This document shows positions 13,411-47,202 of a stretch of DNA of 64,000 bases, piece after piece; position 1 is the stretch's first letter, and every line of letters begins with the position of its first letter. The stretch spans positions 64,001 to 128,000 of the forward strand of contig CBDCXV010000010.1 of the NCBI GenBank assembly GCA_965223905.1, in the 5' to 3' direction. Made by a program: the position numbers and the translations under genes. A model generated the notes under the pieces. That model saw only the letters and a program-made list of their open reading frames with translations, was not told the origin of the DNA and did no database searches. The DNA is from Candidatus Latescibacterota bacterium. GTDB lineage: Bacteria; Latescibacterota; UBA2968; UBA8231.

Positions 13411-13421
13411 CCAACCCCCCC

Positions 13422-14636
13422 ATGGCCGATCCTGAACCTCTGAAAGAAGTGACCGCCGATCAGGTGGTGGCCCAAAAAGCCCTCAAAAAGTTGCGGAGGT
13501 ACGCCAAGGCAGTCGGCAAGCAGGAAGACACCGACTACGTAAACAGGTTGCGATCCGGACTCAGGAATCTGGTCGATCCCCCCGATGAGGGCGAAACGGA
13601 GGAAGAGGATCGGGAAGCTGACGCTCTGCTCGCCGTAGCCGAACGCTACTCCGACACCGAAGAAGCCGACCCGAAAGAACTCCTTGCCGAGATTCGGGCG
13701 GCTTTTTCCGACGACAACGACAGTTCCAAACACCTGCCGGACCCCGTAGTCGGCGACGCTTGGGATGTGGAGGACCCGGATCGCGAGTGGTTGGTTGACG
13801 GTTGGCTGCCCGCCGCCGAACTGGCCTTGCTGAGCGGCCCCGGAAACGTCGGAAAAAGCCTGTTGGTTCTGCAGCTCGCCAATGCGCTGGCTACGAGCCA
13901 GGAGGTTCCCAGTTGGCTACCCAAAGGGAAGAAAGCAACGGCCGAAGCCCCGGCCCTGAAATCGGAGGAGGGGGTGCCCGTGGTGATGGCGAATTGGGAG
14001 GACTCGGCTCCCGAAGCACGACATCGCCGTTTTAGACTGCATGCTTTCGGCGACTGCAAATGGGCGGATGCTTCCGACGTGAAAAAGCACCTGCACGTGT
14101 TGCCGATGCGCGGCCATGGCCCTACCTGGGGACCGGGCGGAACCGGACACATCTCCGTCATGGGCGAAGTGACCAAAACAGGGGAGGCCCTGCGTCGATA
14201 CTGTGAAGCCCACAAGGCCCGCCTGCTGGTGTTGGATCCGGTCAGCCTTGCCTTGGCGGTCGAGGAGAATTCCCGCCCCCTGGTTTCGGTGGCTTTGGAG
14301 AGTTGGGCCGGGTGGGCCAACGATACCGGCTGTGCGGTGTTGCTGACCGGACACCCCTCCAAGGTCACAGAAGGGGAAGGAAGCGACTACAGCGGCTCGA
14401 CGGCCTGGCGGGGCCTGGTGCGGAGCCTGTGGACGCTCAAGCCACTCAAGGATCCCGACCCCAACGCCGCAGAAACCCACGCGGAGTTGATCTTGAACAA
14501 AGCCAACTACGCCAAGGCCGGACAGATCCTGAACCTTGAGACCCACGGCAGAGGTGCTGCCTGGCATTTTCAGTCTACGGGCAGCGTGAAACGGAAGGGA
14601 ACCGGGGGGGGAAAAGAGGAAGTGAAACCGGCATGA
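13422..14636 (+). CDS. AAA_25 / RepA-like replicative helicase
   Basis: REWLVDGWLP, Walker A GPGNVGKS, Walker B LLVLDP, and GHPSK...YSGSTAW. Confidence 0.87.
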   Translation: MADPEPLKEVTADQVVAQKALKKLRRYAKAVGKQEDTDYVNRLRSGLRNLVDPPDEGETEEEDREADALLAVAERYSDTEEADPKELLAEIRAAFSDDNDSSKHLPDPVVGDAWDVEDPDREWLVDGWLPAAELALLSGPGNVGKSLLVLQLANALATSQEVPSWLPKGKKATAEAPALKSEEGVPVVMANWEDSAPEARHRRFRLHAFGDCKWADASDVKKHLHVLPMRGHGPTWGPGGTGHISVMGEVTKTGEALRRYCEAHKARLLVLDPVSLALAVEENSRPLVSVALESWAGWANDTGCAVLLTGHPSKVTEGEGSDYSGSTAWRGLVRSLWTLKPLKDPDPNAAETHAELILNKANYAKAGQILNLETHGRGAAWHFQSTGSVKRKGTGGGKEEVKPA

Positions 14637-16036
14637 ACAACCCCAAATCCCAAAATGAGGAAGCTCGGAAGTACGCCAACGACCACCGGATCGAGACTGT
14701 CCGCTACGCCATCCACGACGTCGGACGCCTGCAGGACTGGGCGAAGAAGGATCCAGAACGGTTCCCTACGGCTGTGGAGCTGGGCAAACGCTTAGAAGGA
14801 TTCGAACTCGAAGGCCGGCGCTACGTCTGTCAGAATGACGATTTTAATCCCCCAGAACTCGTAAAATTAGTGGCCGAGGCCCTGTACCCAGAGGACGAGT
14901 CAGTTTTTCTGGTGTCGGGAACATGGCAACAACCCTCTGGCCAATATGAAAAGAATCAGGAGGGTGCTAAGCCCGTTTTTGACCAGAATGGTCGGATATG
15001 GATTCCCGACGAAGACCCGTTCGAGTGGATCATCGAGGCCCTCAACGAGGCCGCGGTAAGCGCCGACGGATTGACAGCGCTGGCCGAAGTAGTACCCATA
15101 GATCCAGAAACTAGCCGACCCGATCCCATATTGGCAGCCCCTCTCGTTATGGTCCATCGAGACCACCAACAGGCCAACCTGTTCAGCCCATCGAGGTGGG
15201 GGGAGACACAAAATGGGCAGTACGAAATGTTTTCCGGATTCGGCCGCAGCCAGGAAGACGGTCCGATCGTCCCGGCACTTCCTATGGCGTTGTACGACCT
15301 GGGAGTCGGAGGCCATCAACATATATCGCCCGGTAGTGGCGCCCCGATGGCCCTGCGTATCTTCGTCGAAATGTGCCTGTCAGTACCTCTTGCAGAACGG
15401 AACCGGCCCGGCCCTGTGGTGTTAAAACCCCAACGCTTCTGCGAATTTCTGGAAACGCTGTATCCCGACTCCTCGTCCTATCGTCCCGGCCGCCACTATG
15501 GCCCCATACGCGAAGCCCTGGAAAGCCTGACGACTCCCCAAGCTCGGGTACCCTGGGTTGATCCGGAAACCGGCGACGGCGCGGCCCGTTTCGTGGTGGT
15601 TCCCTTGGACGTTCCTCGCGAAGGAAGAATGAAGGATTGGATTCAGTTCCAGGTCCATTTACCTCCCGGCTCCCACCGCGGCGCCATCGTGGACCGACCA
15701 GCCATGCGGGTAGCGGGAGTTAGGTCGGTGACGATGTATCGCATGGCGTTGTCGCTGGCACTACACTGGCACGATCCAGGACGCCTGCGAGTCCCAATTT
15801 CAAGGGGGAAAGAAAAGCATTGGTACCAAGTCCGATCCCCGGAACGATACCCCGAAGTCACGGATGCCCAATTGATTGGGATGGCCTACCCTCGCACCAG
15901 TGACGACGACAACCGCCGTATGCGGTTAAAGCGAGCTCAGGAAGCGCTAGACGCCTTGGTGGAAATCGGGTATGCCGCAGTGCATCCCAGGCGGCTAATA
16001 TATCCAGGACCCAAATGGGTGGGATGGGGTACGTAG
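14633..16036 (+). CDS. Hypothetical protein, possible replication initiator
   Basis: 467-aa ORF coupled (ATGA overlap) to the helicase and followed directly by iterons; function inferred from context only. Confidence 0.55.
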   Translation: MNNPKSQNEEARKYANDHRIETVRYAIHDVGRLQDWAKKDPERFPTAVELGKRLEGFELEGRRYVCQNDDFNPPELVKLVAEALYPEDESVFLVSGTWQQPSGQYEKNQEGAKPVFDQNGRIWIPDEDPFEWIIEALNEAAVSADGLTALAEVVPIDPETSRPDPILAAPLVMVHRDHQQANLFSPSRWGETQNGQYEMFSGFGRSQEDGPIVPALPMALYDLGVGGHQHISPGSGAPMALRIFVEMCLSVPLAERNRPGPVVLKPQRFCEFLETLYPDSSSYRPGRHYGPIREALESLTTPQARVPWVDPETGDGAARFVVVPLDVPREGRMKDWIQFQVHLPPGSHRGAIVDRPAMRVAGVRSVTMYRMALSLALHWHDPGRLRVPISRGKEKHWYQVRSPERYPEVTDAQLIGMAYPRTSDDDNRRMRLKRAQEALDALVEIGYAAVHPRRLIYPGPKWVGWGT

Positions 16037-16077
16037 GCCGGAAATCGCCGCTTAACCTAACGCCCGGAACTCAAGCC

Positions 16078-16482
16078 TAACCGACAAGCACCTTCCTCCC
16101 GGAGTTAGCGGATCGCGACGTCCGCCCTGAACCCCCAAAAAGGTCTCTAACGGGATTTTATCGGCCCCTTCGAAGCGTTAGAGACGTGCTTGTCGGTTAC
16201 GCCGACCCCCCTTTACAGCCCCTGGACGTTAACCTCGGTAGCGAAAATCCTTGAAAAAAGGGGCCGTATCCGATTTTTCTCCCCTTTTTTTTCCTAAAGA
16301 CGTGCTTGTCGGTTACGCCGATCCCTTACAGGCCCTTAAAAAACGTGCTTGTCGGTTACGCACGGGTGTGTCGCCCCTCTTCTTTCCTTGAGGGGAGGCC
16401 CCCCCGTCCTGTCGGTAAAAGACGTGCTTGTCGGTTACAAAAGACGTGCTTGTCGGTTACAAAAGACGTGCTTGTCGGTTAC
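16078..16482. repeat. Iteron-like repeats (putative replication origin)
   Basis: ACGTGCTTGTCGGTTAC at ~16184, ~16300 and 16343; three exact 22-bp tandem copies AAAAGACGTGCTTGTCGGTTAC at 16417-16482; an inverted partial copy at 16078-16091. Confidence 0.8.
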
Positions 16483-17402
16483 ATTTTCGCCCCTGCTAGT
16501 TCGGCTAACTTGTTGTCTGGCAACGAGTTGATTTTTCCGCGGAATGCCCACCGACCCCGACCCCCACGAGGGGAGGGGGGGGCCGCTGGGAGGGGACGAA
16601 GGGTGGCTCCCCTCCCGCGGCCATTCCAAAAAAAACCGTTTTCGTCATGTCGGCGATCACGGTATCGTCGTCGGCCAGGTATTTCCCGAACCGGCACCGA
16701 AACCCGACCTGGGTTGTCGATGTGGGTCCGACGACCTCGAGCAGCTTGCCGACACTTCCCCGGTTTTTTTGGAAAAATTTTGAAAATTTTCCACGAGCTC
16801 TGCGCGAGGGTAACTTCACCCCGCTGCGCAGCTCCGCGCGCTTCGCCGTCGATCTGAGATCCCCCCCCGACGGTCCCCCGGCCCCCTTCGCGCTCGTTCG
16901 TTCGCGTTCTTTCCGCCCCCTCGCGTTTCTCCGCCCCTCGCGGCGCTGACCGCCCCCCCTGGACGCGCTCCGGCCCCCTTCGTTGCACCGTGCAGCACCG
17001 TCAATTCAGCCTGCGGCGCCTCGTTTTTGAGTTCGTATATCAACCATTATCACAAGTAAAACAGCACCCAGCTAATAGCTATTGTCCGGTGGGTCGTCCG
17101 CCTTCGACCAGCCCGGCCGGACGGAACGAACTACTACGCCCTCGGCCCTTGAGAACCACCAACGGCCTTTCGATGGCTTTGGGAAACCGGCAAAAGGTGC
17201 CCGAGGTAGCAGGCCCCAGGGGATTTTCAAAGTGCTTGCTGACAAACAATCAGTACGCTAAGGGGCTCTCACTCTCACTCTAACTCTAACCCATCGCAGG
17301 TTGCCCCCCCGACTCAACAAAGCGAGGACCTGAACCTCCCCCTTTCGACTCGCCGGGCTCCAACCAATCGCGCGATTCGGCGCCCTTCTGCCGAGAAACA
17401 TT

Positions 17403-17431
17403 TTGCGCTACGTGGCGATAATTAGTATTGT
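17403..17431 (+). promoter_or_regulatory. Putative sigma70-type promoter of the accessory operon
   Basis: TTGCGC-17 nt-TATTGT lies upstream of SD AGGAGG and the first gene. Confidence 0.35.
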
Positions 17432-17476
17432 CTTATCTAAATGAACACTTCACCCCCAACAGGAGGAACAAAGACC

Positions 17477-17914
17477 GTGCTGACCTACAACGACTACCGC
17501 AACGTCGATTTGCGGACGGACGTGATGGAAACGGCGTCGGGAGAGGCTGTGAAACTGCCTGAGGTGCCGTTGCCTGAGATGATTTCGTTCAGGAACAGCG
17601 TGGCGAGTGAAGGGGATTGGGTGCTTGCCGACTACCTGCGGCAGTTCGTGCCGGAGGTATTCCTGTCGAATCTCGGCGCGGCGATAGCGCACTCGATTGA
17701 CCCGGCTATGAACAGCGTCGGCGTCGAGGCGGCGATCAGGGTGTCTCATGAGACCCTGTCGGGGTTGGATGCGGAGACCTTCGCCCACGAAATCAACCTC
17801 GCCCGCGCCTGCGAGTTCATCCGGCCCGGCTACCTCGCCGCATGCGCCCGGGAGCAGGGTATGGATCAGGACTACTGCGCGGCGGCGAAGTATGTGCAGG
17901 AGGCGACGGCATGA
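17477..17914 (+). CDS. Hypothetical protein
   Basis: SD AGGAGG and GTG start; open frame, first gene of a co-directional operon. Confidence 0.65.
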   Translation: MLTYNDYRNVDLRTDVMETASGEAVKLPEVPLPEMISFRNSVASEGDWVLADYLRQFVPEVFLSNLGAAIAHSIDPAMNSVGVEAAIRVSHETLSGLDAETFAHEINLARACEFIRPGYLAACAREQGMDQDYCAAAKYVQEATA

Positions 17915-18027
17915 GCTTCTCCCTCACGGTGCTGTTCACGCTGCTTGTGATCTACCTCGTGTTGCTTCTCACGGTGCCGATTTACATGGCATTAACCACA
18001 CGTCGCAACGGGCGACGATACAGGTAA
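17911..18027 (+). CDS. 38-aa single-transmembrane peptide
   Basis: ATGA overlap with the previous gene; MSFSLTVLFTLLVIYLVLLLTVPIYMALTTRRNGRRYR. Confidence 0.55.
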   Translation: MSFSLTVLFTLLVIYLVLLLTVPIYMALTTRRNGRRYR

Positions 18028-18100
18028 CGGTGAGGGGGCGGGAGCCTTTTCGGGGCTTCCGCCTAAGCCTACGTGCCGGCGTCTCAAGTGCCGGCGCCCT
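18022..18100 (+). ncRNA. Putative type-P5 twister ribozyme 1
   Basis: GGT-AA-CGGT-GAGGGG-[GCGGGAGCC/GGCTTCCGC hairpin]-CTAA-GCCT-AC-[GCCGGC GTCTCAAGT GCCGGC]; predicted cut at 18064/18065. Confidence 0.7.
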
Positions 18101-18127
18101 TTAACCCATTCAGGAGGAACAGGCAAG

Positions 18128-18703
18128 ATGAAAGAGATCACGATTCAACGCTCGGAGCTGGAAGGGGCTGGTATCCAGCCCTACGTCGCCATGCTCCTGC
18201 TCGGACACGACCCGGGCACCTTGTCGGCGGCGACGATGCCCAAGGCGATGCGCGAGTTCGCGGCGCGCCACAACGTGCTGATGGCGCTGATGATGCCGGA
18301 CGCCTCGGCGAACTTCCGGGGTGGCAACGTGTGGGTGACAGGTTGGGCGGGGCAGGGGGCAGAGGAGGATTGGCGGCCGGAGCGATGCCAGTTCGTGGTA
18401 GAGCAGGAGACCGAGCTGATGATGCCGGTGACTTTGGAGTTGAAGATGAAATTGAGCGGCCGCGTGCTTCGGTATGACGCGGACATTCCGTCCGGTCCGG
18501 TGTCCGTGGTCGACGAATGGACCACGCTCGGGGCGATACTCGCACAGTGTCCCGAGTTGGCCGACGAGGTGCTGCGGTCAGGCGACACGCTCGCGGTGGT
18601 TATCGAGCAGCCGGAGGCCCCGGAGGCCCCGGAGCTCGGAAGCGACAAGGACCGGGATCGAATGAACAAGGACGGTACCCCGCCCATTGTTTGGTCGAGG
18701 TGA
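18128..18703 (+). CDS. Hypothetical protein
   Basis: SD AGGAGG and a 191-aa ORF. Confidence 0.7.
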   Translation: MKEITIQRSELEGAGIQPYVAMLLLGHDPGTLSAATMPKAMREFAARHNVLMALMMPDASANFRGGNVWVTGWAGQGAEEDWRPERCQFVVEQETELMMPVTLELKMKLSGRVLRYDADIPSGPVSVVDEWTTLGAILAQCPELADEVLRSGDTLAVVIEQPEAPEAPELGSDKDRDRMNKDGTPPIVWSR

Positions 18704-18775
18704 GAGGTGAGAGGGGCGGGGGGAGACCCCGCCCTAACCCCACAGCCCGGACATCTCAAGTACCGGGCCACCCAT
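18699..18775 (+). ncRNA. Putative twister ribozyme 2 (more degenerate)
   Basis: GAGAGG-[GGCGGGG/CCCCGCC]-CTAA-CCCC-AC-[GCCCGG...ATCTCAAGT...CCGGGC]; GAGG can pair with TCTC (T1); P2 is weak. Confidence 0.55.
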
Positions 18776-18792
18776 TCACAGGAGGTAGCAGC

Positions 18793-19368
18793 ATGTATCT
18801 CAGAGACGGAAAGGTCGGACAGACCTTCAAAGAGCCGAAGAGCGGCAGGTTCGTCACCCTCTTCGACATCAACGGCGGCGAGGCGACGTTCAGCTACACG
18901 ACGGGCGTCGAGGCGACGGGTATGGGACCTGTCGGCGAAGTGTTCCCGATGGGCGATTGGGAGCCTGTCCCGATCCCTGTCATCCCCGACAGCCCTTGGG
19001 GGCAAACGCAGTACGTTGGCGGCGTGGCGGAGGGCATCTACAGGATCATCACGGCCTCTCACGGCGGTCTCAGACTGTTGCAGGCTGCGCAGGACAAGCT
19101 GCCTCCGGGAGTGCGTCAGATGTTCCTGAACGGCCCCGAGTGGGCCGAAGAGGACTGCGAGGAGATCATCGTGCTCGCGTTGCTCGGGTTGACCGGCAAG
19201 CGGGAGATCCTGCTGGCGCTGAAGATGGCGCAACAGATCCCCCGGTATCAGCCGGCAGTGGCCAAGCTGTGCGAGCTCGCCGGCGTCGAGGTAGTCGAGA
19301 CCCCGGCGCTGAACCCGTTGCAGGGCTCGTACGCACACGCGGACGGGCGTACCGAGTACTCGGATTAG
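18793..19368 (+). CDS. Hypothetical protein with a DUF7007-like motif
   Basis: SPWGQTQ...AEGIYRIITASHGGLRL...WAEEDCE resembles a plasmid-associated family recalled as DUF7007. Confidence 0.6.
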   Translation: MYLRDGKVGQTFKEPKSGRFVTLFDINGGEATFSYTTGVEATGMGPVGEVFPMGDWEPVPIPVIPDSPWGQTQYVGGVAEGIYRIITASHGGLRLLQAAQDKLPPGVRQMFLNGPEWAEEDCEEIIVLALLGLTGKREILLALKMAQQIPRYQPAVAKLCELAGVEVVETPALNPLQGSYAHADGRTEYSD

Positions 19369-19371
19369 AAA

Positions 19372-19419
19372 CCACAAGGGGTAGGGGTATGACGAGCTCG
19401 TGCAGCCCCTACCCCTTGT
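19372..19419 (+). other. 15-bp perfect intergenic hairpin
   Basis: CACAAGGGGTAGGGG...CCCCTACCCCTTGTG, with no U-tract, directly before the next SD. Confidence 0.6.
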
Positions 19420-19435
19420 GGAAAGGACAAACGAA

Positions 19436-19597
19436 ATGAGCTTGAACATCGAGAAGGTGCGGGAGCTGATGGAATCGGCGGCGGAGACCCTGGAGCTGTC
19501 CGGCTCCGAGGACCTGCACGTGACCGCGGCGGCCTGCCGCATCCGCTTCTACGCTTCACAGCTGGAAGAGTGGGAGTTGGAGGTCTACGAGGAATGA
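19436..19597 (+). CDS. Small hypothetical protein
   Basis: SD AAGGA; 53-aa ORF. Confidence 0.5.
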   Translation: MSLNIEKVRELMESAAETLELSGSEDLHVTAAACRIRFYASQLEEWELEVYEE

Positions 19598-19698
19598 CAA
19601 CCATCATCGAAGTCAGGCGCATCGTTGCTTTCGACGCCAACGGAGAGCCCGTGTGGCGGACGTTGCTGGAGGTGCGCATCAGGGAGAATGAACGATGA
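19594..19698 (+). CDS. 34-aa hypothetical peptide
   Basis: ATGA overlaps at both ends and GGAGG upstream. Confidence 0.4.
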   Translation: MTTIIEVRRIVAFDANGEPVWRTLLEVRIRENER

Positions 19699-20504
19699 AT
19701 CACGCAGGAACCAAGGTTTTCACGGACAAGATCGACGACGTAAGGATGCGCGAGATGTGCAGCATCATCGCCGCCTACATCGCCTCGCGCACCGCGGCGG
19801 TAGACTGGACGGGCGTCGAGGCCCTCGCCGCCGTCGCCGCCGAACTCGGGTTTGTGGACCGGGACGGGGTGATCGTCGGCGGACTCGCCGAATACCTCCA
19901 ACAGAGCTTGGGGGCGGAGCACGTCAACTATCGGCCCGCCATCAACATCCTGCAGGCTGCCGGCAGAGCGCGGGACGTGACGGACCTGAACAGCCTCACG
20001 GTGCACGTCGATGTAGAGGTGACCGAGGGAGACATCGCGGACGGTATCCAGGGGAATTGCGACCTGTGCGCCCTGGCGCTGGCGCTGCAGCGGGCAGTTG
20101 GCATCGAGGTCCACGTGCACGTGACGGGTACGATGGCCTACCTCGACGGGTTCTATCACTGCTGGCTGCCGGCAGAGGTCAAGACCTTCATCAGCCTGTT
20201 CGACAACAACTCCGACAACGGTGTGACGGTCAAGCCCTTCAAGGTGCACCTGATCTTCATCGCGACGGGACCGAGGGCGATTCCCGAGGAAGCGCGGTGC
20301 AACGCAAGCCGGTTCAGAAACGATGCCACGCCGACGTGGAGCTACTGGATCGAGACGGACGGCCCGGTGCTGGAGGATAGCGTCAGGGCGCACACGCTGG
20401 CAGAGGCGCGGCAGTTGATCCGAGCCGCACACCCCAACGACATCGGAGCGGACGGCGAGGTCACAGGGCCTGGCGGTCACAGCTTCCCGGTGTTCAGGAA
20501 GTAG
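19695..20504 (+). CDS. Hypothetical protein
   Basis: 269-aa ORF; contains DIADGIQGNCDLCALALAL. Confidence 0.7.
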   Translation: MNHAGTKVFTDKIDDVRMREMCSIIAAYIASRTAAVDWTGVEALAAVAAELGFVDRDGVIVGGLAEYLQQSLGAEHVNYRPAINILQAAGRARDVTDLNSLTVHVDVEVTEGDIADGIQGNCDLCALALALQRAVGIEVHVHVTGTMAYLDGFYHCWLPAEVKTFISLFDNNSDNGVTVKPFKVHLIFIATGPRAIPEEARCNASRFRNDATPTWSYWIETDGPVLEDSVRAHTLAEARQLIRAAHPNDIGADGEVTGPGGHSFPVFRK

Positions 20505-20617
20505 CGGCGAGGGGACCGGGGTCCCGAAAGGGAGCGAGGGGCAGTGAGGAGCTGTCCCTCGCTTGGCAATCCCGGTCTAAGCCTACTGCCGGTGTCTCAA
20601 GTGCCGGCGCCTTCTAC
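20496..20617 (+). ncRNA. Putative type-P5 twister ribozyme 3 (branched P1 insert)
   Basis: CGGC-GAGGGG-ACCGGG...CCCGGT-CTAA-GCCT-AC-TGCCGGT-GTCTCAAGT-GCCGGCG; predicted cut at 20578/20579. Confidence 0.72.
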
Positions 20618-20641
20618 CCCATTCAGGAGCAAGAAATCGAC

Positions 20642-21259
20642 ATGGACATGGAGCGAATGATTTACCCGAACCGGGCGCAGGTTCAAATCGACGTGGTGGA
20701 CCACCTGCGAAAGGCGGCGGACTTCCTCGCTGTCGATGAGGAATCGATGCGGAATCCGGCCAACGTGGCGGCCTTGATGCTGCGGGAGATGTACACAGGC
20801 GGCGGGACGCTGTCCGATTACGTGGGCTCCTCGCTCGGGGAGTACATCGTCGAAACGCTCGGACTGACCGAGGCGCGGCTCGATTGGGAAGAGGAGGAGG
20901 ACGTGTGGATGGTGAGGCACCACAACTACGGACGGGAGACGCTCTACGGGGCCTATACCTCGTATCAGGAGATGCAGGACGCGGTGACTGCATCCGGAGT
21001 GATGGCCGTGTTCGCCTCTGACGGAGCCTGGGAGCGCATCTGTCGCCTCGACCTGTTGGACAACCCCGGAGCCGAGCGGCTGCGAGGGGAGGCCCTGGTG
21101 TCCCGCGTGAAGGAGATCCTGCGCGGCGCCGGCGCCGGCATCAGAGAAGGCGGCAGGGCGGGGGAGCTCGCCGCGTTGGCCATTCACCGCGCAAGCGGCC
21201 AATTCAGCTACGAGGACCTCAACTGCGAGGACCTCTACGAAGAGGACAAGGGGGTGTGA
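20642..21259 (+). CDS. Hypothetical protein (paralog A)
   Basis: 205-aa ORF, clearly similar to 21604-22206. Confidence 0.75.
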   Translation: MDMERMIYPNRAQVQIDVVDHLRKAADFLAVDEESMRNPANVAALMLREMYTGGGTLSDYVGSSLGEYIVETLGLTEARLDWEEEEDVWMVRHHNYGRETLYGAYTSYQEMQDAVTASGVMAVFASDGAWERICRLDLLDNPGAERLRGEALVSRVKEILRGAGAGIREGGRAGELAALAIHRASGQFSYEDLNCEDLYEEDKGV

Positions 21260-21376
21260 ACGGCGAGGGGACCGGGGTCCCGAAAAGGGAGCGAGGGGCA
21301 GTGAGGAACTGTCCCTCGCTTGGCAATCCCGGTCTAAGCCTACGTGCCGGCGTCTCAAGTGCCGGCGCTTCTCTTT
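21250..21376 (+). ncRNA. Putative type-P5 twister ribozyme 4
   Basis: Near-identical to ribozyme 3; predicted cut at 21335/21336. Confidence 0.72.
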
Positions 21377-21400
21377 TAACCCATTCAGGAGAGGATTGGA

Positions 21401-21601
21401 ATGATCTACTGCGTGGCAGTGAAGAAGTACGAAGAATGGCACTGGAGCGTCAAAGACGAAGAGGACCGCCTGTGCTACACGACAACCGCCCGCACCAACG
21501 CGAATGCGGTGGCGGAGTTCCTGTCGGACCCAAGGACGCCTCATTTCGAGGGCATGAAGGCATGGATTGCCGACGTGACCGAAAACCGAAAGGACGGGTA
21601 G
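21401..21601 (+). CDS. Small hypothetical protein
   Basis: SD AGGAGAGG; 66-aa ORF. Confidence 0.55.
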   Translation: MIYCVAVKKYEEWHWSVKDEEDRLCYTTTARTNANAVAEFLSDPRTPHFEGMKAWIADVTENRKDG

Positions 21602-21603
21602 CA

Positions 21604-22206
21604 ATGGACATGGAACGGATGATCTATCCGAACCCGACGCAGGTGAAAATCGACGTGATTCAGCATCTGCGGAAAGCGGCTGAGTTCCTCACCTTGGAAC
21701 ACCTCACGAGAACCCACCCGTCCAACGTGGCTGCCTGCCTGTTGCGGGAGACCTACGTCGGCGGCTCGATGCTCGCCGATTACGTGGCTTCCTCGCTCGG
21801 GGAGCACCTCGTCGAGACGCTCGGGCTGACCGAGGCGCGCCTCGATTGGGACCCGGACGAAAGCGTGTGGCTGGTGCATCACTTGGCCATGGAGCAGGAG
21901 ACGTTCTACGGCGGGTACAACTCATACGCGGAGATGCTACAGGCGATGGCGACAAGCGGAGGGATGGCCGTGTTCGCCTCTGATGGAGCCTGGGAGCGTA
22001 TCCGGCAGCTCGACCTCATGGACACCCCCGGAGCCGAACAGCTCACAGGAGAGCCCCTGGTAGAGCGCATACGGGAGATCATGCGAGGCGCGGGGGCGAG
22101 CATCCGGGGAGGCGGGCGTGCCGGCGAGCTCGCCGCGTTGGCCATCTACCGGGCAAGCGGGCAGTTCGCTTACAAGGACCTCACTCCAAAGGAGCAAGGG
22201 TTGTAG
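21604..22206 (+). CDS. Hypothetical protein (paralog B)
   Basis: MDMERMIYPN...GELAALAI shared with 20642-21259. Confidence 0.75.
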   Translation: MDMERMIYPNPTQVKIDVIQHLRKAAEFLTLEHLTRTHPSNVAACLLRETYVGGSMLADYVASSLGEHLVETLGLTEARLDWDPDESVWLVHHLAMEQETFYGGYNSYAEMLQAMATSGGMAVFASDGAWERIRQLDLMDTPGAEQLTGEPLVERIREIMRGAGASIRGGGRAGELAALAIYRASGQFAYKDLTPKEQGL

Positions 22207-22277
22207 CGGCGAGGGGGCGGAAGGCTACGGTCCTCCGCCTAAACCCACAGCCGGTGCCCCAAGTGCCGGCGCAACCC
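22198..22277 (+). ncRNA. Putative type-P5 twister ribozyme 5
   Basis: P5 GGGTTGT/GCAACCC; GAGGGG-[GCGGAAGG/CCTCCGC]-CTAA; L4 GCCCCAAGT (CCCC can pair with GGGG); predicted cut at 22240/22241. Confidence 0.72.
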
Positions 22278-22290
22278 ACAGGAGGAACGG

Positions 22291-23052
22291 ATGAAGTCAT
22301 TGGATGAGTGCCACGACCTGCTCGTGCAGGGAGTGAGAGAGAGGAAGAAAGAGCTGATCGAGGAGGCCCGCAACGAGGCGGCGCCGTGGTCCCTGCCCAA
22401 GATCGTGCTGAGCATGACCGGCGTGGATCTCGTCGGAACCAAGGGACACGGAAGCAACTACCTCCCGAAGGACGGCGAGCCCACCAGCGAGGTTGTCGAC
22501 CGGATCGCGATGGCCCTGTGCGGGTCGATCTTCATCGCCGACACCCTCGACAACGAGGCGAGGGACATCATTCAGAGCCGCATCTCCCTGTTGGATCAAT
22601 GGGCAGAAACGGAGAATCTGGAGACGGCGGCTCGGTTCCTGATCGAGAACCGTTGCGAGCGCAAGGTGCCGGCGACGACGGCCGCTGATTCCATCCTGTT
22701 GCTGAAGCCCTTCGTTTTTCCGCGCTACATCTCCGAGGCGGTGAAGGCGTACACCGAGCGCATCAGGCAGCACAACCGGAAGCTGATGCAGGAGGAGGAG
22801 GAGAGGGTGAGAGCGAGGCGGGCAGAGCAGGAAAACCGCGTTCACCTCGACATCATGCGAAACGGCCACTCTCTCGCCGCAGCCACCTTGAAGGGGCCGG
22901 GGGCGTGGGACATCGCCGAGGTGCTCTGCAAGAGCTTGGCGAGCGGTCCCCAATTCAGCGACTCGTTCCTGCGAATCACGTCGGGTCCCGAAAGCCGCGA
23001 GATCCCTCTTGATCTCGGCGGCAAGTTCGATGAGGAAGAGGAAGAAGAATGA
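22291..23052 (+). CDS. Hypothetical protein
   Basis: SD AGGAGG; 253-aa ORF with an acidic tail. Confidence 0.7.
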   Translation: MKSLDECHDLLVQGVRERKKELIEEARNEAAPWSLPKIVLSMTGVDLVGTKGHGSNYLPKDGEPTSEVVDRIAMALCGSIFIADTLDNEARDIIQSRISLLDQWAETENLETAARFLIENRCERKVPATTAADSILLLKPFVFPRYISEAVKAYTERIRQHNRKLMQEEEERVRARRAEQENRVHLDIMRNGHSLAAATLKGPGAWDIAEVLCKSLASGPQFSDSFLRITSGPESREIPLDLGGKFDEEEEEE

Positions 23053-23205
23053 AACCGACTCCTCCCCGTGGAGGAACAGGACCGGGGGGGGAGTGATGAA
23101 TCCAGACTGGCAAGAATCGCCTTGCAAGGGGGAGGGGGAAGGACTGCGAGGGTCCTCCCCCTCCCGAACAACAACCACTCATCCCGAGAAGGAGAATGGA
23201 TAGCC

Positions 23206-23934
23206 ATGAAGATGCACAACTCCGCAGACCGCGTCACCTGCGCCCGTGAGGCGCCCGGCGCCGGCAGGGTATCGGAGGCCGGCCCGGTGTACGACGGCCC
23301 TCTGGCGGCTCCTACGTGCCGCGAGCGGCTGATTTCGGACGGTCCCGAGTCGATGCGCGATTCGGAACTGCTGACCGTCGCCCTGGGTAGTACGGAAGAG
23401 GACGCCCGCGAGATCGTCGAGCGCTTCGACTTCGGCGAGCTGGTCAACCTGAGCGTCGACAAGCTCGCCAACCTGAGCGGCGTCACCTCCTGCCGCGCGG
23501 CGCGGCTGCTGGCCGCCGTCGAGATCGCCCGCCGGGCGCTGAATCGCGGCATCGGCATCCTGCCGGTGATTACGACGCCCGTCGAGACGATTCCGCTGCT
23601 GGCCGACATCAAGGACGAGCTCAAGGAGTTCTTCGTCTGCCTGTATCTGAACGCCCGCAATCAGGTGATCCACAAGGAGGTCGTCAGCATCGGCTCGCTG
23701 TCGGCGTCCATCGTCCACCCCCGCGAGGTGTTCCGGATCGGCGTGGCCAAGTGCGCGGCTTCGGTCATCCTCGCCCACAATCATCCCTCCGGGGACGTGT
23801 CGCCCTCCAAGGACGACATCGACCTGACGCACAGGCTGCGGGAGGCCGGGCTCATCATGGGCATCGAGGTGCTGGACCACATCATCATCGCCCGCTCGGA
23901 TTTCTGCAGCCTGAAGGAGACCGGGATCGTATGA
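23206..23934 (+). CDS. radC: RadC-family JAB-domain protein
   Basis: RERL...DSELL, EFFVCLYLNARNQVI, VHPREVF, HNHPSGDVSPSKDD and VLDHIII. Confidence 0.93.
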   Translation: MKMHNSADRVTCAREAPGAGRVSEAGPVYDGPLAAPTCRERLISDGPESMRDSELLTVALGSTEEDAREIVERFDFGELVNLSVDKLANLSGVTSCRAARLLAAVEIARRALNRGIGILPVITTPVETIPLLADIKDELKEFFVCLYLNARNQVIHKEVVSIGSLSASIVHPREVFRIGVAKCAASVILAHNHPSGDVSPSKDDIDLTHRLREAGLIMGIEVLDHIIIARSDFCSLKETGIV

Positions 23935-24116
23935 GCAAGACAACGGCTTTTCCACCTGAGCGGATCGAGAAGGCGGCGAGGATCTACCACTCGACCGGCG
24001 ACGCGGCGGCGGCCCTCGGGATCGCCCCGTCCAGCTTCGGCCGTCTGTGTCGGCGCTACGGCATCGCCACCCCCGGCCAGCGGCGCCAGGCTCGCCGTGA
24101 GACGGGCGGCAACTGA
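23931..24116 (+). CDS. Small Fis-type helix-turn-helix protein
   Basis: IEKAARIYHSTGDAAAALGIAPSSFGRLCRRYGI. Confidence 0.7.
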   Translation: MSKTTAFPPERIEKAARIYHSTGDAAAALGIAPSSFGRLCRRYGIATPGQRRQARRETGGN

Positions 24117-24369
24117 AACCAAGGAGCAGGGGGGGGCCATGTCGAGCCCTCCCCTGCCTTCCCGTCAATCGACAATCGACTGAGGAAGGTTCACCTGATG
24201 GCCCCTTACGACAACGGGCAATACAACCAGAACGGCAACCGCTGACGGGGCTTCCCCCCCGAGGCGCCGGTGTCGCCCGTTGTCGAGGGGTACGCGGGCA
24301 AAAAGCTTTCTCGTCGAGCCGGAAACCGGAGTTGGAATCTTTCCCGAAGGGGAACAATCTTTGGGAAGA

Positions 24370-24569
24370 ATGAGAAACGAGGAAATGGGCGAAGAAGAGA
24401 GCCGGAAACCCCACACGCCGCAGGATTTCGAGGCCGCCGCCGCCGTCGATCAGGAGGCCGCGGCTCGTCGGCGGCGGGAAAGCGAGCTGTTCAAAAGCGG
24501 CAGTGGATCGAGCGCAACAGGCAAGCGAATCTGGCCCGGCGCATCCTCAACCGCCTGCTCCGCGCATAG
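24370..24569 (+). pseudogene. Small hypothetical protein, frameshifted (paralog remnant at ~26113-26283)
   Basis: TPQDFEAAAAVD...RRILNRLLRA versus PRDFETAAALD...RRLLNRLLRA. Confidence 0.45.
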
Positions 24570-24637
24570 CTCTGCGGTTGTGACGACGGGAGGACGGACG
24601 GGTTGCGAGAGAAATACCCAACAGGGAAGGAAAGACC

Positions 24638-25162
24638 ATGAAGAAGTGCAGTGAATGCAATAACCCCATTCCAGAGGACCGGCTGAAATTGCAACCGAAC
24701 GTCAAGACCTGCTCGGACATCTGCTCAGCGATGCGCCAAGGGTCGAAGGGCAACCAGCGCTCGAAGTCCTATCGTCAGCGCGTTCGGAAGAGCCTGGGGG
24801 AGCTCGAACACGTTCCTCTGGTCGAGGACACCACCTTGATCGTCCGCCGTGGCCACGTCGTCGGGTGGCAACCGGAAGGAGAGGGGTGGAAACTGGTCGC
24901 AGTGGTTCGCGCAACGCATGAGGGCAGGGCAACCCATGTCTGCCCCGTCAGTTCCTGGGGACAGCAAAAAGCCACGTCGGCCACCCGGTTGTCGGGCGGG
25001 AAGATAGCCGTCCTGCCCCCCCAATGGGCTCAAGACCAGGAGTGGGTGAGGGACCTCGCCCAGGTATCATTTTCGGATTTGAAGGCTCTGGAAAAGTCGT
25101 TGGATACCCTGGCCCAGCGCCGCTCGTCCTCCGACTGCGCAGGTCAGGAAAGCGGGAGATAA
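24638..25162 (+). CDS. Protein with an N-terminal DksA/TraR-like C4 zinc finger (copy 1)
   Basis: CSECNNPIPEDRLKLQPNVKTCSDIC resembles the CxxCxxxIPxxRLxxxPxxxxCxxC motif. Confidence 0.65.
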   Translation: MKKCSECNNPIPEDRLKLQPNVKTCSDICSAMRQGSKGNQRSKSYRQRVRKSLGELEHVPLVEDTTLIVRRGHVVGWQPEGEGWKLVAVVRATHEGRATHVCPVSSWGQQKATSATRLSGGKIAVLPPQWAQDQEWVRDLAQVSFSDLKALEKSLDTLAQRRSSSDCAGQESGR

Positions 25163-25879: not shown

Positions 25880-26336
25880 AACCAAGTAGACGCTTCGGAT
25901 ACTACCGAACTTTTGGGGGAATCGAAAAGCCTCCGACTGCGCAGGTCAGGAAAGCGGGAGATTTCGGCCTCCGGTCGAACCGGAGAGCGAGGGTTATAAG
26001 GTGCAGCCCCCCTGAAACGAAATGCAACTCCCGGCAGCCCCTCAGTTGAGGGACTGGCCTGCGACAGCGACCCGTCCGACTGCTTGCCGCCGCGGCGTCG
26101 CCTCCTGCACCCCTTACGCCACGGGATTTCGAGACCGCCGCCGCTCTCGACCTGAACGCCGCCGACCGCCGCCGCCAGGAAAGCGAGCGGCTCAAAGCGC
26201 TTTCTCTGCGGCGCCACCCGACCGAATCGGTGGGACGCCGCCTGCTCAACCGCCTCCTGCGCGCCCTGTCCGCCCTGCTGTGATAAGGGGGACGGGGACG
26301 GTCGGGAGGATACCAGGAAGGAACAGGGAGAGCACA

Positions 26337-26836
26337 ATGAAGAAGTGCACGGTATGTAGAAAGAACATTCCAGCCGCCCGGTTCAGAGCGCGGCCACACA
26401 CCAAAACCTGCTCGGTCGCCTGCTCCGGGATTCGCCAGGGGAACAAGGGCAGCAATCGCTCGAAGTCCTACCTCCAGCGCGTACGCAAAACCCTCGTGGA
26501 GGTCCCGCACGTGCCCCTGGTCGCCGGCACCGAACTGAAAGTCCGCAAGGGCCACGTCGTCGGCGTGAAGCACGCCGAGGGGGGCAGGTGGCACCTGGCC
26601 GTGGTGGTGCGCGCTACGCAGGAAGGCAAGGCGATTCATGCCTGTCCCGCCAGCGAATGGGCGACGACAAGTGCCACGCCGGCCACCCGGTTGGCCGGCG
26701 GGACGGTCGCCGTCCTGCCGCCCGAGTGGGCCGAGAATCAGGAGCTGGCCGTCGAGCTCGAGGAACAGCGGTCCCGTATCTGGAGGAACTGCGGCAGGCG
26801 GTGGTGGAACGGCGGGAGGCGGTGAGCCAGGGGTAA
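26337..26836 (+). CDS. C4 zinc-finger protein (copy 2), 1-nt deletion near 26771
   Basis: Paralog of 24638-25162. The duplicated tails at 27788 and 29074 read CGGTTCCCG where this copy reads CGGTCCCG. Confidence 0.6.
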
Positions 26837-26932: not shown

Positions 26933-26968
26933 GCTTCAATGAGGCCGGGATCCGAGGACCCCGGAAAG
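26933..26968 (-). CRISPR. Solitary full-length CRISPR repeat
   Basis: Exact 36-nt copy of the array repeat, ~970 bp from the array. Confidence 0.9.
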
Positions 26969-27938: not shown

Positions 27939-28854
27939 GCTTCAATGAGGCCGGGATCCGAGGACCCCGGAAAGCCGCGTAGGTAGTTGGCAATTCGAGG
28001 TGTACCAAGGGGCTTCAATGAGGCCGGGATCCGAGGACCCCGGAAAGGACCTTCGCGAAGAACTTCGCGATCTCGACGAGGAGGCTTCAATGAGGCCGGG
28101 ATCCGAGGACCCCGGAAAGACGGTCCGCTCGCAGCTTTCCCGCTTCTCCCTGCTGGCTTCAATGAGGCCGGGATCCGAGGACCCCGGAAAGCTCCTCGAA
28201 TGAGCTGTTTCGATTAATCGAGCTCATAGGTTGCTTCAATGAGGCCGGGATCCGAGGACCCCGGAAAGCCCGGACCCTGGGAACCAACAGCCACGGGAAC
28301 CAAGAGCTTCAATGAGGCCGGGATCCGAGGACCCCGGAAAGCGATCGGCTGGCCAACGGGTGGCGCGAAGTTTGTCCCGGCATTGCTTCAATGAGGCCGG
28401 GATCCGAGGACCCCGGAAAGTTGAGTGAAGACGCGGAGGATCGGCTCCGAAAGGGATTGCTTCAATGAGGCCGGGATCCGAGGACCCCGGAAAGCAGCTA
28501 TAAAGGAGGAATTTGGGGGAAAGACCTTAGCTTCAATGAGGCCGGGATCCGAGGACCCCGGAAAGTCGATGATTGGGCCAACTTCTCCTCCGGATACTCG
28601 CTTCAATGAGGCCGGGATCCGAGGACCCCGGAAAGGTGAGTATTGAATAGTCATCCTTTTCAATGTTACCAGCTTCAATGAGGCCGGGATCCGAGGACCC
28701 CGGAAAGTAGAAGAATCGCATGAGTTTTACATAGAAGAGGAACCTGGCTTCAATGAGGCCGGGATCCGAGGACCCCGGAAAGCAGCGCATCACCTATCGG
28801 CCGGAAGGGCCGGACGGCGCTTCAATGAGGCCGGGATCCGAGGACCCCGGAAAG
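27939..28854 (-). CRISPR. CRISPR array, 13 repeats / 12 spacers, type I-G (I-U)-like repeat, no cas genes in the window
   Basis: Identical 36-nt repeat CTTTCCGGGGTCCTCGGATCCCGGCCTCATTGAAGC with an internal hairpin and an ATTGAAGC end; unique spacers of ~34-43 nt. Confidence 0.97.
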
Positions 28855-30924: not shown

Positions 30925-31278
30925 ATGAGTTACAAAAGCCCGCTACTGGATGAAAAGGATGAATGCACAGCCATGCTGTTGGCTACGGTCCTAATCCGGA
31001 TTCAAACATCAACTCCCGAATCTCCTCTCCGAGAGTTTTCGCGCTTTGGGTATCGAAGCCGGGTTCGCCAGGCCAAAGAAGAAGGAAAAGAGTGGCAAAG
31101 CCCTCTGGAGCTATTTGGAGATGACGAAAAACACCTTTTTGACATTGTTGAAAATATTTCGCTTCGACCTCAATATCAGCCTGTTCTGGCAGTATGCCGG
31201 GCGATTGTGATGAAAGAACCGATGTCGTCCGAGGTCTCCGTTTTTGAGTCGGTTATCGAGGCTCTCGGGATAACCTGA
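30925..31278 (+). CDS. Hypothetical protein
   Basis: 117-aa lower-GC ORF convergent with the integrase. Confidence 0.45.
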   Translation: MSYKSPLLDEKDECTAMLLATVLIRIQTSTPESPLREFSRFGYRSRVRQAKEEGKEWQSPLELFGDDEKHLFDIVENISLRPQYQPVLAVCRAIVMKEPMSSEVSVFESVIEALGIT

Positions 31279-32468
31279 TTTGATGGGTGCCGGGAACCTA
31301 CTTTCCCCAGATACGCCTCCCAATCCTCCATCAGCTTGCGGCGCAGATCGAACAGATCGCTTCTCCGGTAGGCAGCTTCGGTCCGGTCGTCGTTGACGTG
31401 GGCCAGGGCCAGCTCGCAGACCTCGCGGGGCGCTTGAGAGCACTCGGCGGCCCAATCGCGGAAGCTGCTGCGGAACCCGTGGGGCACCGCCTCGATGCCC
31501 AGTTCCTTGACGAACTGCGACAGCGACCCGTCCGCCTGCTTGCCGCGGCGCGAGCTGGGAAACACCAGCCCCGAGCCGTCGTCGAAGGCGCGCGCCTGAT
31601 CCAGCACCGCCAGGGCTCGAGGCGCCAGCGGCACGCGGTGCTCCCGGCCCTTCTTCATGCGCTCGGCCGGAATCGTCCACAACGCCCCGTCGATTTCCTC
31701 CCAGCGCGCCCCCCGGACTTCGTTGGAGCGGGTCGCGGTGAGCACCAGGAACTCGATAGCCAGCTTCCTCGGCTCCCATACTTCGGCGGCCCGCATCGTG
31801 CGCAGGGCCGCCACGACCTCGCCGTGCGGCAAGGCTTTGTAGTGGACCTTCACGGTCTCGTTCTTGGGCAGAGCCGCCTGGATGGCGTCGCCGGCCGGGT
31901 TGTCCTGGCGGTGGCCCTCGGCGACGGCCCACTTCATCACCTGCGAGATCCGCTGGCGCACCCGCTTGGCCGTCTCCCGGCGCGACGACCAGATCGGCGT
32001 GACGACGGCCAGCACGTCCGACGTCGTGATCCTGTCCACCGGCTTGCTGCCGAGCTTGGGCATGGCGTACTCGCCGAGACTCTTGCGCCAGTTTTCCTCC
32101 GAGCGGCCCCCCTCCCTCCAGGTCTCGGCGTGAATCCGGATGACGGCCTCGGCCGCGGCGGCGAAGGTGGGAACGCGGGAGGCGGCGCGTTGGGCGCGGG
32201 GGTCTGAGCCCTGCTCGACGGCGCGGCGATTCTCCAGCGCCTTGTCCCGAGCTTCTTTGAGCGTCACCAGCGGATACGGTCCGAGCCCGACGTTGGTCAG
32301 CTTCCCGTCGATGTTCAGCCGCTGGCTCCACGTCTTGGACAGCCGCCCGTTGTCCTCCCTGGGCTTGACCAGCAGCGAGAGCCCGAAGCCGCCGCGCCCG
32401 TCGCCGTAGCGGCCGGACCGGTTCACGTTTCGCACGAAGGTTGCCGAGAGCATTTTGGGGCGTTTCAT
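31176..32468 (-). CDS. P4/IntA-type tyrosine integrase with an arm-binding domain
   Basis: GRYGDGRGGFGLSL...GLGPYPLVTLKEAR; LTATRSNE (R); HGFRSSFRDW (HxxR); LAH...AAY. SD AAGGAGG precedes the ATG at 32468. Confidence 0.95.
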   Translation of the reverse strand: MKRPKMLSATFVRNVNRSGRYGDGRGGFGLSLLVKPREDNGRLSKTWSQRLNIDGKLTNVGLGPYPLVTLKEARDKALENRRAVEQGSDPRAQRAASRVPTFAAAAEAVIRIHAETWREGGRSEENWRKSLGEYAMPKLGSKPVDRITTSDVLAVVTPIWSSRRETAKRVRQRISQVMKWAVAEGHRQDNPAGDAIQAALPKNETVKVHYKALPHGEVVAALRTMRAAEVWEPRKLAIEFLVLTATRSNEVRGARWEEIDGALWTIPAERMKKGREHRVPLAPRALAVLDQARAFDDGSGLVFPSSRRGKQADGSLSQFVKELGIEAVPHGFRSSFRDWAAECSQAPREVCELALAHVNDDRTEAAYRRSDLFDLRRKLMEDWEAYLGKVGSRHPSNQVIPRASITDSKTETSDDIGSFITIARHTARTG

Positions 32469-32504
32469 GGGTCGATTTCCTCCTTGTTGACGTCCGTGGG
32501 TTAC

Positions 32505-32660
32505 GCACCACGTTATCACAAAATTATCACTATGTCAAGGAATCTTATGAAACGTAAGGAAACCACGAATCAGCCGTAAACGCCTGAAATACAGTCGATT
32601 ACAGAAACGCTACGGTAGGGTAAGAAATGGTATGAAATGCCAAAACAGTGGACAGGTCTT
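32505..32660. other. Putative right attachment region of the island
   Basis: AT-rich, with tandem TTATCAC arm-like sites at 32513-32530 and an abrupt switch to GC-rich YWTD-repeat coding sequence at ~32650. Confidence 0.55.
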
Positions 32661-46840: not shown

Positions 46841-46967
46841 GGACCCTGGAGCCCGCCGGAATCCCTCCTGACAGGCGCGTCGGCGGGCAAGAATGGGCTT
46901 GACGAACTGGAGCCGGGGCTTTAACTCTGTCGAGTGGCCTGTTGCGATCAGGCCCTGCTTTGCAAAA

Positions 46968-47165: not shown

Positions 47166-47202
47166 AGGTGAACGGAACCCTTCGGCAGAAAGGTGGTCAC
47201 CG

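Follow-up and report, generated by a model that had tools for sequence, protein, structure and literature searches.

A 64,000-nt stretch of DNA from a Candidatus Latescibacterota bacterium (contig CBDCXV010000010.1 of assembly GCA_965223905.1, positions 64,001 to 128,000; hereafter the window, whose own numbering we use) carries five genuine and specific repeats on the + strand, each in an intergenic spacer of a single operon. We consider it likely that they belong to the twister class of self-cleaving ribozymes by descent. They probably represent a small divergent sub-family of type-P5 (circularly permuted) twisters, which would cut the operon message into units. The type-P5 twister is reportedly the class described by Roth and colleagues in 2014.

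Five intergenic repeats share one layout

The pattern CTAANCCYAC-N(4-14)-CYCAAGT matches the window five times, with CTAA at 18063, 18734, 20577, 21334 and 22239, and nowhere besides; 100 dinucleotide-preserving shuffles of the window gave a mean of 0.00 matches. Each of the five elements starts 0-1 nt past the stop codon of the upstream open reading frame (ORF) and ends 22-33 nt before the next ATG. A preliminary description of the window had proposed a common layout consisting of a stop codon, (C/A)GGY, GA, GRG, a hairpin, CTAA, NCCY, AC, a stem with the loop R-Y-C-Y-C-A-A-G-T and a closing ACCCA...AGGAG stretch, and this layout is present in all five elements. Its last part should be taken out of the element itself. 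The ACCCA..AGGAG stretch, which lies inside the gap before the ATG, recurs ahead of the operon's first gene (17445-17470) and is missing from a sixth copy found elsewhere in the genome; for these two reasons we read it as a ribosome-binding site (RBS) and 5'-untranslated-region motif of the operon that lies outside the fold.

We built a covariance model, R1, from the five window copies, with a structure made of the stems P2, P1 and P4. The five copies are listed below with their R1 scores, the z-scores of their folds, the stop codons that precede them and the predicted cleavage sites.

18026..18099, + strand: copy 1; R1 88.3 bits; fold z -3.40; stop TAA 18025-18027; predicted cut between U18064 and A18065
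18703..18771, + strand: copy 2; R1 69.9 bits; fold z -3.37; stop TGA 18701-03; predicted cut between U18735 and A18736
20503..20612, + strand: copy 3; R1 80.7 bits; fold z -4.04; stop TAG 20502-04; predicted cut between U20578 and A20579
21259..21370, + strand: copy 4; R1 83.8 bits; fold z -6.00; stop TGA 21257-59; predicted cut between U21335 and A21336
22205..22274, + strand: copy 5; R1 70.4 bits; fold z only -1.12; stop TAG 22204-06; predicted cut between U22240 and A22241

In copy 1, P2' (CGGT, 18028-31) is followed by GAGGG (18032-36), the P1 hairpin (18037-18063), the predicted cut, P2 (GCCT, 18067-70), the T2 strand AC (18071-72) and P4 (18075-80 with 18090-95), which is closed by the L4 loop GTCTCAAGT (18081-89); its minimum free energy (MFE) fold yields P2, P1 and P4. 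Copy 2 has P2' AGGT, GAGAG (with GAG as its T1 strand), P1 GGGCGGGG/CCCCGCCC, a P2 strand CCCC that forms two of four pairs, and P4 GCCCGG/CCGGGC with a 12-nt loop, and carries a compensatory A-U pair in T1 and a covarying P4. In copy 3, P1 is a three-way junction that carries a GAAA-capped hairpin and an 11-bp hairpin, and P1 of copy 4 is a three-way junction like it. Copy 5 combines GAGGG with the L4 loop GCCCCAAGT.

Copies 3 and 4 are identical at 104 of 108 positions (96.3%), and the four differences all fall in loops or the linker or exchange U-G for C-G pairs. The ORFs next to these two copies (20642-21259 and 21604-22206) are paralogs with only 73.3% nucleotide identity. Copies 1 and 4 are identical at 35 of 35 positions from CTAA through the end of P4, despite unrelated P1 hairpins. 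These conserved cores suggest either selection on the core or gene conversion between copies.

The order of parts and the pseudoknots follow the type-P5 twister

Read 5' to 3', the elements run P2'-GAGRG-[P1 hairpin]-(C)UAA-P2-AC-[P4, loop G-Y-C-Y-C-A-A-G-U], which is the part order of a type-P5 twister. Shared with that class (reviewed in PMC5408937) are P2', GAGNG, the P1 hairpin, NAA, P2, NC and a P4 with ..NNNAAGN.. in L4, together with both pseudoknots and the catalytic A, A and G. The preliminary description had recognized covariation in the first pseudoknot, T1, and the sequences bear this out, with GGG/CCC in copy 5, GAG/CUC in copy 2 and GGG/CUC in copies 1, 3 and 4. It was also right that the second pseudoknot, T2, is AC/GU in the five window copies, and the U^A sites that it predicted, which are those listed above, match the sequence.

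In natural twisters the general acid is the A just 3' of the cut and the general base is the G that opens the 3' strand of L1, and a second A is almost equally sensitive (PMC5408937 and the available text of PMC11662667). All three bases are invariant here: the A after the predicted cut, the second A and the leading G of L1's 3' strand are each found in 8/8 copies of the family described in the next section (alignment columns 79, 80 and 7). Just before the predicted cut, the window copies all have U and the three others G; according to the same text of PMC11662667, any of the four bases is tolerated at this position (n-1) in natural twisters.

A rare family with consistent pairing

An R1 search of the 7.9-Mb assembly found six copies, namely the five in the window and one on the minus strand of another contig (C9:422773-422845). 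Two further copies, 1.9 kb apart, lie in one genome of the same genus (G002). We ran R1 on 151 relatives and on a 151-genome sample of the phylum, both of which include the source genome; in each run this genome and G002 matched and the other 149 genomes did not, and the family total is eight sequences. The three extra copies are intergenic as well, with a stop codon 0 nt (two copies) or 9 nt (one copy) before them and an RBS and ATG after them, and their islands share zinc-finger genes of the dksA/traR type with the island in the window. Pattern searches of wider collections added nothing that we accept. A stricter pattern found five loci in metagenome contigs, two of which score 12-15 bits with R1 without a P1 hairpin in the alignment and are taken as chance, and no locus in viral contigs. 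A loose pattern found at least 120 loci in genome contigs, and R1 gave one weak match on 80 of them (13.5 bits, E 0.19), likewise taken as chance. The family is rare.

One of the two G002 copies (L129) has GGG for GAG and CACG for CAAG. It looks decayed, and its two lost conserved bases indicate that decay occurs within the family.

We aligned the eight copies to R1 (alignment A4) and counted pairs on a structure of 24 pairs that includes both pseudoknots. In this alignment 91.1% of the cells pair, compared with 79.3% in column shuffles, and none of 500 shuffles reaches 91.1%, figures that lean toward the structure because the alignment was fitted to it and several rows are close relatives. 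Sliding the partners by 1-3 columns lowers the pairing to 35-46%. Eleven of the 24 pairs are altered on both sides. P1 is paired in 96.9% of its cells, with seven of its eight pairs changed on both sides, and P4 in 91.1%, with both sides changed in its two outer pairs. T1, which joins three L1 bases to the three L4 bases 5' of AAG, pairs at all three positions in 8/8 copies, its middle pair being GC in four, GU in three and AU in one (the A-U pair of copy 2), and T2 (AC with GU), which joins the dinucleotide after P2 to the two L4 bases that follow AA, pairs in 8/8 and is invariant. The G-U pairs in P1, P4, T1 and P2 are C-A mismatches on the opposite strand, and the fold therefore belongs to the sense RNA. 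MFE folding alone recovers P1 and P4 in 8/8 copies and P2 in 5/8; the fold z-scores of the three extra copies are -2.53, -1.45 and -1.12.

The chain was also said to open in a stem, P5, formed by the flanks of each element, and this part of the preliminary description fares less well. When flank duplexes are compared with those of 300 shuffles, copies 1, 2 and 4 are no better than shuffled flanks, and copies 3 and 5 are marginal (0.09 and 0.06 of the shuffles do at least as well); the two G002 copies give 0.0 and 0.05. Only 3/8 copies, copy 5 and the two of G002, reach a fraction of 0.06 or less. The best P5 candidate in the window is that of copy 5, where GGGTTG (22198-22203) faces CAACCC (22273-22278) in a duplex of -11.9 kcal/mol, and 0.06 of the shuffles do at least as well. 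The Rfam model spans P2' to P4, without P5, and 'type P5' is used here for a chain that is open where P5 would sit.

A sixth copy links the family to the Rfam twister model

Twister-P5 (Rfam RF02684, clan CL00120) has a curated gathering score of 37.6 bits. A search of the whole genome with this model gave 14 matches at E<=10. The sixth family copy (C9:422778-422843) leads them with 28.3 bits and E 0.0022; the next match has 16.5 bits. With both strands counted, 15.8 Mb were searched, of which the six family loci make up about 450 nt, so it is very unlikely that the top match falls on one of them by chance. The alignment of the sixth copy agrees with the model at GAGGG, at the AA after the cut site, at CCCAAG and in all three stems. 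The consensus reads cGCA-GAGgG-[P1]-UAA-UGCg-GC-A..-cCG-GUCcCAAGCC-CGg and the sixth copy CGGA-GAGGG-[P1]-GAA-UCCU-AC-A..-CCG-GU(gu)CCCAAGU(g)C-CGG.

Several results weigh against counting these elements among active type-P5 twisters. The preliminary description had named the lack of a twister match in Rfam as a result that would speak against its reading, and such a lack is what we found for all five window copies. At the gathering scores, the whole window yields nothing but a group II intron and a cobalamin riboswitch, and no twister family. None of the eight Rfam matches at E<=10 on 17900-22400 (~4.5 kb) is a twister, Rfam searches with copy 5 alone (22190-22292) and with copy 1 alone (18024-18100) returned no twister match, and 0/5 window copies are among the 14 genome-wide Twister-P5 matches. 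The sixth copy itself scores below the cut-off. It was not re-found in a 151-genome run with stricter filters (33 candidates scored per genome), and the near-identical G002 copy has no Twister-P5 match at E<=5. Twister-P5 also scores 25.5 and 26.2 bits in apparent coding sequence of two other genomes of the phylum, so this score range is noise across many genomes. In the reverse direction, R1 does not recognize a twister that passes the Rfam cut-off (L147, described below), scoring it at 5.1 bits. The pairing statistics come from eight sequences only, some of them near-identical and aligned with a model built on the same structure, and the fold z-scores are weak in copy 5 (-1.12) and in the two G002 copies (-1.45 and -1.12).

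The stems also depart from the consensus. P2 should have four Watson-Crick pairs (PMC5408937). Here the two middle pairs are G-C in 8/8 copies, whereas the outer pair is unpaired in 8/8 and the inner pair is AU in three, CG in two, UG in one and unpaired in two. The consensus L4 reads G-U-NNN-A-A-G-N-C, and its closing G-C pair is essentially invariant (PMC5408937). In the family, NNN-A-A-G-U is kept in L4 in 7/8 copies (CACG in L129), and L4 has one extra base 5' of U/C and a closing pair that is C-G in two copies, U-G in five and A.A in one; the Rfam alignment of the sixth copy renders the L4 difference as a 2-nt and a 1-nt insertion. In the available text of a study of about 2600 natural twisters, lower activity accompanies flaws at the loop-proximal P4 pair and insertions in L4, while flaws in P1, P2 and P4 and G-U wobbles in the pseudoknots are tolerated (McKinley et al., 2024; PMC11662667). 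Activity is therefore plausible but not assured.

The type-P5 reading of the preliminary description thus stands in its architecture, its conserved unpaired bases, its pseudoknot pairing and the model link of the sixth copy, and is not borne out by the Rfam searches of the window copies or by P5, which is unsupported in 5/8 copies. The family differs from the known type-P5 twisters in scoring below the cut-off, in forming two to three of the four P2 pairs, in the extra purine and the C-G or U-G closing pair of L4, in its long P1 and in its host, a GC-rich bacterium of a small phylum.

The T2 strand after P2 is GC in the consensus and NC in the descriptor of McKinley et al. (PMC11662667, in its available text). 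AC/GU instead of GC/GC is not unusual, since the same AC..GU is found in L147, a Twister-P5 match of 41.7 bits, above the cut-off, in 1/150 genomes of a Clostridia-class sample. L147 has only three P2 pairs and about four possible P5 pairs. Its layout is a stop codon, 5 nt, the ribozyme, an RBS and an ATG, and it shares with the window copies its placement between ORFs of the same strand, just past a stop codon and just before an RBS. Protein comparison found no homology between the Clostridia-class twister loci and the operon described here.

Three further searches complete the comparison. Twister-P5 was above its cut-off in 0/151 sampled genomes of the phylum (33 candidates scored per genome). 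Twister-sister (Rfam RF02681) gave eight matches at E<=10 on the genome, with a best score of 19.4 bits and none at the family loci. A home-made twister-P5 descriptor gave 29 matches on the genome against 22 in a reversed-sequence control (maximum control score 14), with scores of 16-23 for copies 1-4 and 14 for copy 5, and missed the sixth copy; its ranges were tuned after the copies had been seen and it rejects the 3-nt P2 of L147, and we give it little weight.

Another Clostridia-class genome has a sub-threshold Twister-P5 match of 28.4 bits (L148, 1501-1568, + strand) with AAG for GAG, in which an A replaces the general-base G, and UUAAAAG in L4, which might mark it as a natural variant or as a dead copy.

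Proposed processing of the operon message and its alternatives

We propose that during transcription each element would fold with P2' pairing to P2 and with the GAGRG and (C)UAA strands flanking the P1 hairpin. L4 of the P4 hairpin would then dock back through T1 (GRG with CYC) and T2 (AC with GU), and the RNA would cut itself between the U and the A of CUAA. One long message would in this way give six units. An upstream unit would end in a strong P1 hairpin and a two-base tail, CU, with a 2',3'-cyclic phosphate; the unit downstream of the cut would carry a 5'-OH, followed by ten bases, by the P4 hairpin and by a free ACCCA..AGGAG ribosome-binding region. The length of P1, well beyond what catalysis requires, and its three-way form in copies 3 and 4 are consistent with an additional role in capping the 3' end. 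We lean toward cleavage by most copies and processing of the operon message; cleavage, co-transcription of the operon and an effect on mRNA stability or translation are what we infer.

A more far-reaching reading, which we put forward tentatively as a possibility on the doubtful side, is that the elements form a distinct twister lineage. This lineage would combine a three-pair P2 with an obligatory mismatch, an L4 with one more base and a reversed closing pair, and an oversized P1. Its hosts would fall outside the niche known so far, that of anaerobic Firmicutes and phages, and it would act in P4-like islands as a portable 'cistron separator', duplicated along with genes and with its cleavage coupled to upstream translation. 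The 5' edge of the element is fused to the stop codon (0-1 nt) in 7/8 copies. Under such coupling, stop-codon purines and the final codons of the upstream gene would make up the ribozyme junction and P5. A terminating ribosome would compete with ribozyme folding, and cleavage, together with the unmasking of the downstream RBS, would be linked to whether the upstream gene is being translated.

Four alternatives to cleaving type-P5 twisters were weighed. The first is that the elements are of twister descent but have lost cleavage, and that the hairpins P1 and P4 stabilize the mRNA, pause the ribosome or RNA polymerase, or mark sites for host ribonucleases (RNases). This would account for the failure of all five window copies to reach any Rfam twister threshold, for the weak P2 and altered L4 in every copy and for P1 hairpins much longer than catalysis requires, and the L129 copy demonstrates that the family can decay. 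We nevertheless judge it unlikely. Seven of eight copies keep all of the unpaired bases linked to catalysis, and both pseudoknots are complementary, with a compensatory A-U pair in copy 2, none of which plain hairpins would need. The differences between copies 3 and 4 spare all core positions, and natural twisters with comparable flaws are mostly active (PMC11662667, as far as its available text goes).

An unrelated structured RNA that resembles a twister, for example a site for an RNA-binding protein of the island, an antitermination element or an RNase III-type processing site, seems distinctly improbable to us. It fits the absence of a direct covariance-model match in the window copies, and the operon genes, almost all of unknown function, leave room for a partner protein. 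It does not explain why the top Twister-P5 match in 15.8 Mb lands on one of the six family loci, nor why unpaired conserved GA, AA, NC and AAG stand at the places of the twister consensus. Complementarity between a loop and an internal loop, as in T1 and T2, is likewise unexpected for a protein-binding or RNase III site.

It is very improbable that the repeats act at the level of DNA, as recombination sites (integron attC), as elements similar to repetitive extragenic palindromic sequences, or as operator or promoter repeats. The elements do separate cassettes of unknown function in an island with a tyrosine recombinase, and so have a superficial look of a cassette array. Against this, attC sites are imperfect inverted repeats that fold as bottom-strand DNA, and the stems here are rich in G-U pairs that are mismatched on the other strand, all copies are oriented with the genes, and helices covary while unpaired bases are fixed. 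No sigma-70-like promoter site was found in 16000-25000, compared with 1.1 expected, and the integrase is of the P4 type, with an arm-binding domain and a phage-integrase core, and is not an integron integrase.

Finally, intrinsic terminators or attenuators between cistrons have a negligible probability, since P4 of copy 4, which is followed by TTCTCTTTTA, is the sole site among the five copies that the terminator scan flagged as terminator-like, the other copies have no U tract, and the region holds 10 such sites against 7.5 expected in shuffles.

The operon and its island

The predicted cuts would divide the operon as follows.

17441..18027, + strand: unit 0, an ORF (17441-17914; G+C content at third codon positions 0.78) and an overlapping 38-amino-acid ORF (17911-18027; ATGA overlap); no Pfam, PHROG or NCBIfam family
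18128..18703, + strand: unit 1, a single 191-amino-acid ORF between copies 1 and 2; no family found
18793..20504, + strand: unit 2, a DUF7007 ORF (18793-19368; Pfam PF22653, E 1.3e-13), then ORFs 19436-19597, 19594-19698 and 19695-20504 with overlapping starts and stops
20642..21259, + strand: unit 3, a single 205-amino-acid ORF between copies 3 and 4
21401..22206, + strand: unit 4, ORFs 21401-21601 (66 amino acids) and 21604-22206 (200 amino acids) between copies 4 and 5
22291..23934, + strand: unit 5, ORF 22291-23052 and a RadC-family ORF (23068-23934; Pfam RadC E 8.8e-40, NCBIfam RadC 194.5 bits), 3' of copy 5

Spacers of more than about 70 nt in the operon are all occupied, by one of the five elements or by a hairpin at 19372-19423, and where genes overlap or abut there is nothing between them. 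The hairpin at 19372-19423, a perfect one of 16 bp without a U tract, fills the only long spacer in which no twister-like element is found, perhaps as a non-catalytic substitute or as a site for an RNase.

The elements sit in an island of about 20 kb with the following landmarks, beyond the last of which chromosomal genes are found.

12208-13410, + strand: Toprim/DUF7146 primase-like gene, an island replication gene
13392-14636, + strand: AAA_25 gene, an island replication gene
31176..32519, - strand: tyrosine integrase (Arm-DNA-bind_3, Phage_int_M and Phage_integrase domains), at the right end of the island

The island also has a run of small genes without known families, DUF7007, RadC and zinc fingers of the dksA/traR type. 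PHROG matches in the island are limited to one DNA repair protein of the RadC type, a DksA-like zinc finger and a family whose function is unknown, with no virion protein among them; from NCBIfam come only RadC and TraR in addition. The tyrosine integrase, Toprim primase and AAA_25 gene support the reading of the island as a non-phage integrative element, as the preliminary description had proposed. The dksA/traR-type modules are duplicated (24408-25042 and 26109-26744) and recur in the islands of the C9 copy (L133) and of the G002 copies (L127/L129) with 52-76% protein identity, and these shared modules define a group of related islands.

Between the replication genes and the operon, 16179-16491 holds six direct repeats of about 22 nt (AAAAGACGTGCTTGTCGGTTAC) that look like iterons or operator sites. 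Further along the island, 27939-28854 is a CRISPR-like array of 13 perfect copies of a 36-nt repeat, GCTTCAATGAGGCCGGGATCCGAGGACCCCGGAAAG, spaced by 70-79. A solitary copy of the repeat lies at 26933-26968, 1 kb upstream of the array, and elsewhere in the genome there is only one, with two mismatches, on contig C11. No cas domain was found among the island ORFs tested, and the array could be an orphan array on a mobile island.

To the left of the island, a group II intron domain (RF02005, 161 bits; 11177-11400, - strand) adjoins a reverse-transcriptase fragment (10152-10526, - strand), and further out lie an ISL3 transposase (6176-7474, - strand) and a C-terminal fragment of a type I restriction enzyme (5529-5948). 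These features mark the left flank as a patchwork of mobile DNA. On the other side of the island, a cobalamin riboswitch (46966-47174, + strand, 105.5 bits) precedes a TonB-dependent receptor, a cobalamin adenosyltransferase and a periplasmic-binding/FecCD transport operon, in an ordinary arrangement.

Discussion

In synthetic biology, RiboJ is an engineered insulator of the hammerhead type, in which a self-cleaving ribozyme and a hairpin placed upstream of an RBS provide a defined 5' end for each gene, whatever sequence precedes it. The likeness to the elements described here is one of function only; the arrangement in the window is natural and twister-like.

Clusters of ribozymes that flank genes in integrase-linked elements are a known kind of arrangement, in print since 2011. 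As described in the available text of that report (Perreault et al., 2011; PMC3088659), multiple hammerheads flank individual genes or small gene blocks near integrase genes, and polycistronic constructs of about 2 kb were cleaved in vitro. Both systems have several self-cleaving elements per transcription unit of an integrase-linked element, which bracket mostly unknown genes, and for both the proposed outcome is mRNAs of gene length. They differ in that the elements there are hammerheads, while those in the window are a single twister-like family of predicted activity. Bacterial twisters and hammerheads share gene neighbourhoods, and the available text of PMC6765202 calls their role undetermined and suggests polycistronic processing.

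Viral genomes carry related sites. Among 117 pattern-selected viral loci, 20 were scanned and five had Twister-P5 above the cut-off, one of them with two copies 411 nt apart. One viral contig (L155) has a mixed ribozyme cluster, in which a type II hammerhead (40 bits) lies about 480 nt from a Twister-P5 match (64.9 bits) on the same strand (2436-2500 and 2982-3035, both - strand).

As the arrangement itself is already known, the gain from the present case is limited. What is new is the divergent core that escapes the curated model, the carrier, a non-phage P4-like island, and the phylum, in which 0/151 sampled genomes passed the Twister-P5 cut-off. The variant and gene lists of Roth 2014 and Weinberg 2015 may already cover part of this novelty.

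If the elements are active, the operon would offer, on a non-phage integrative island, a compact natural test case in which 4.3 kb hold five copies of one family, each with protective hairpins flanking its cut. Curated-threshold family models miss real-looking twister relatives in GC-rich genomes. All five window copies are invisible to Rfam and are tied to the class through a paralog only, and ribozyme censuses based on thresholds therefore probably undercount such elements.

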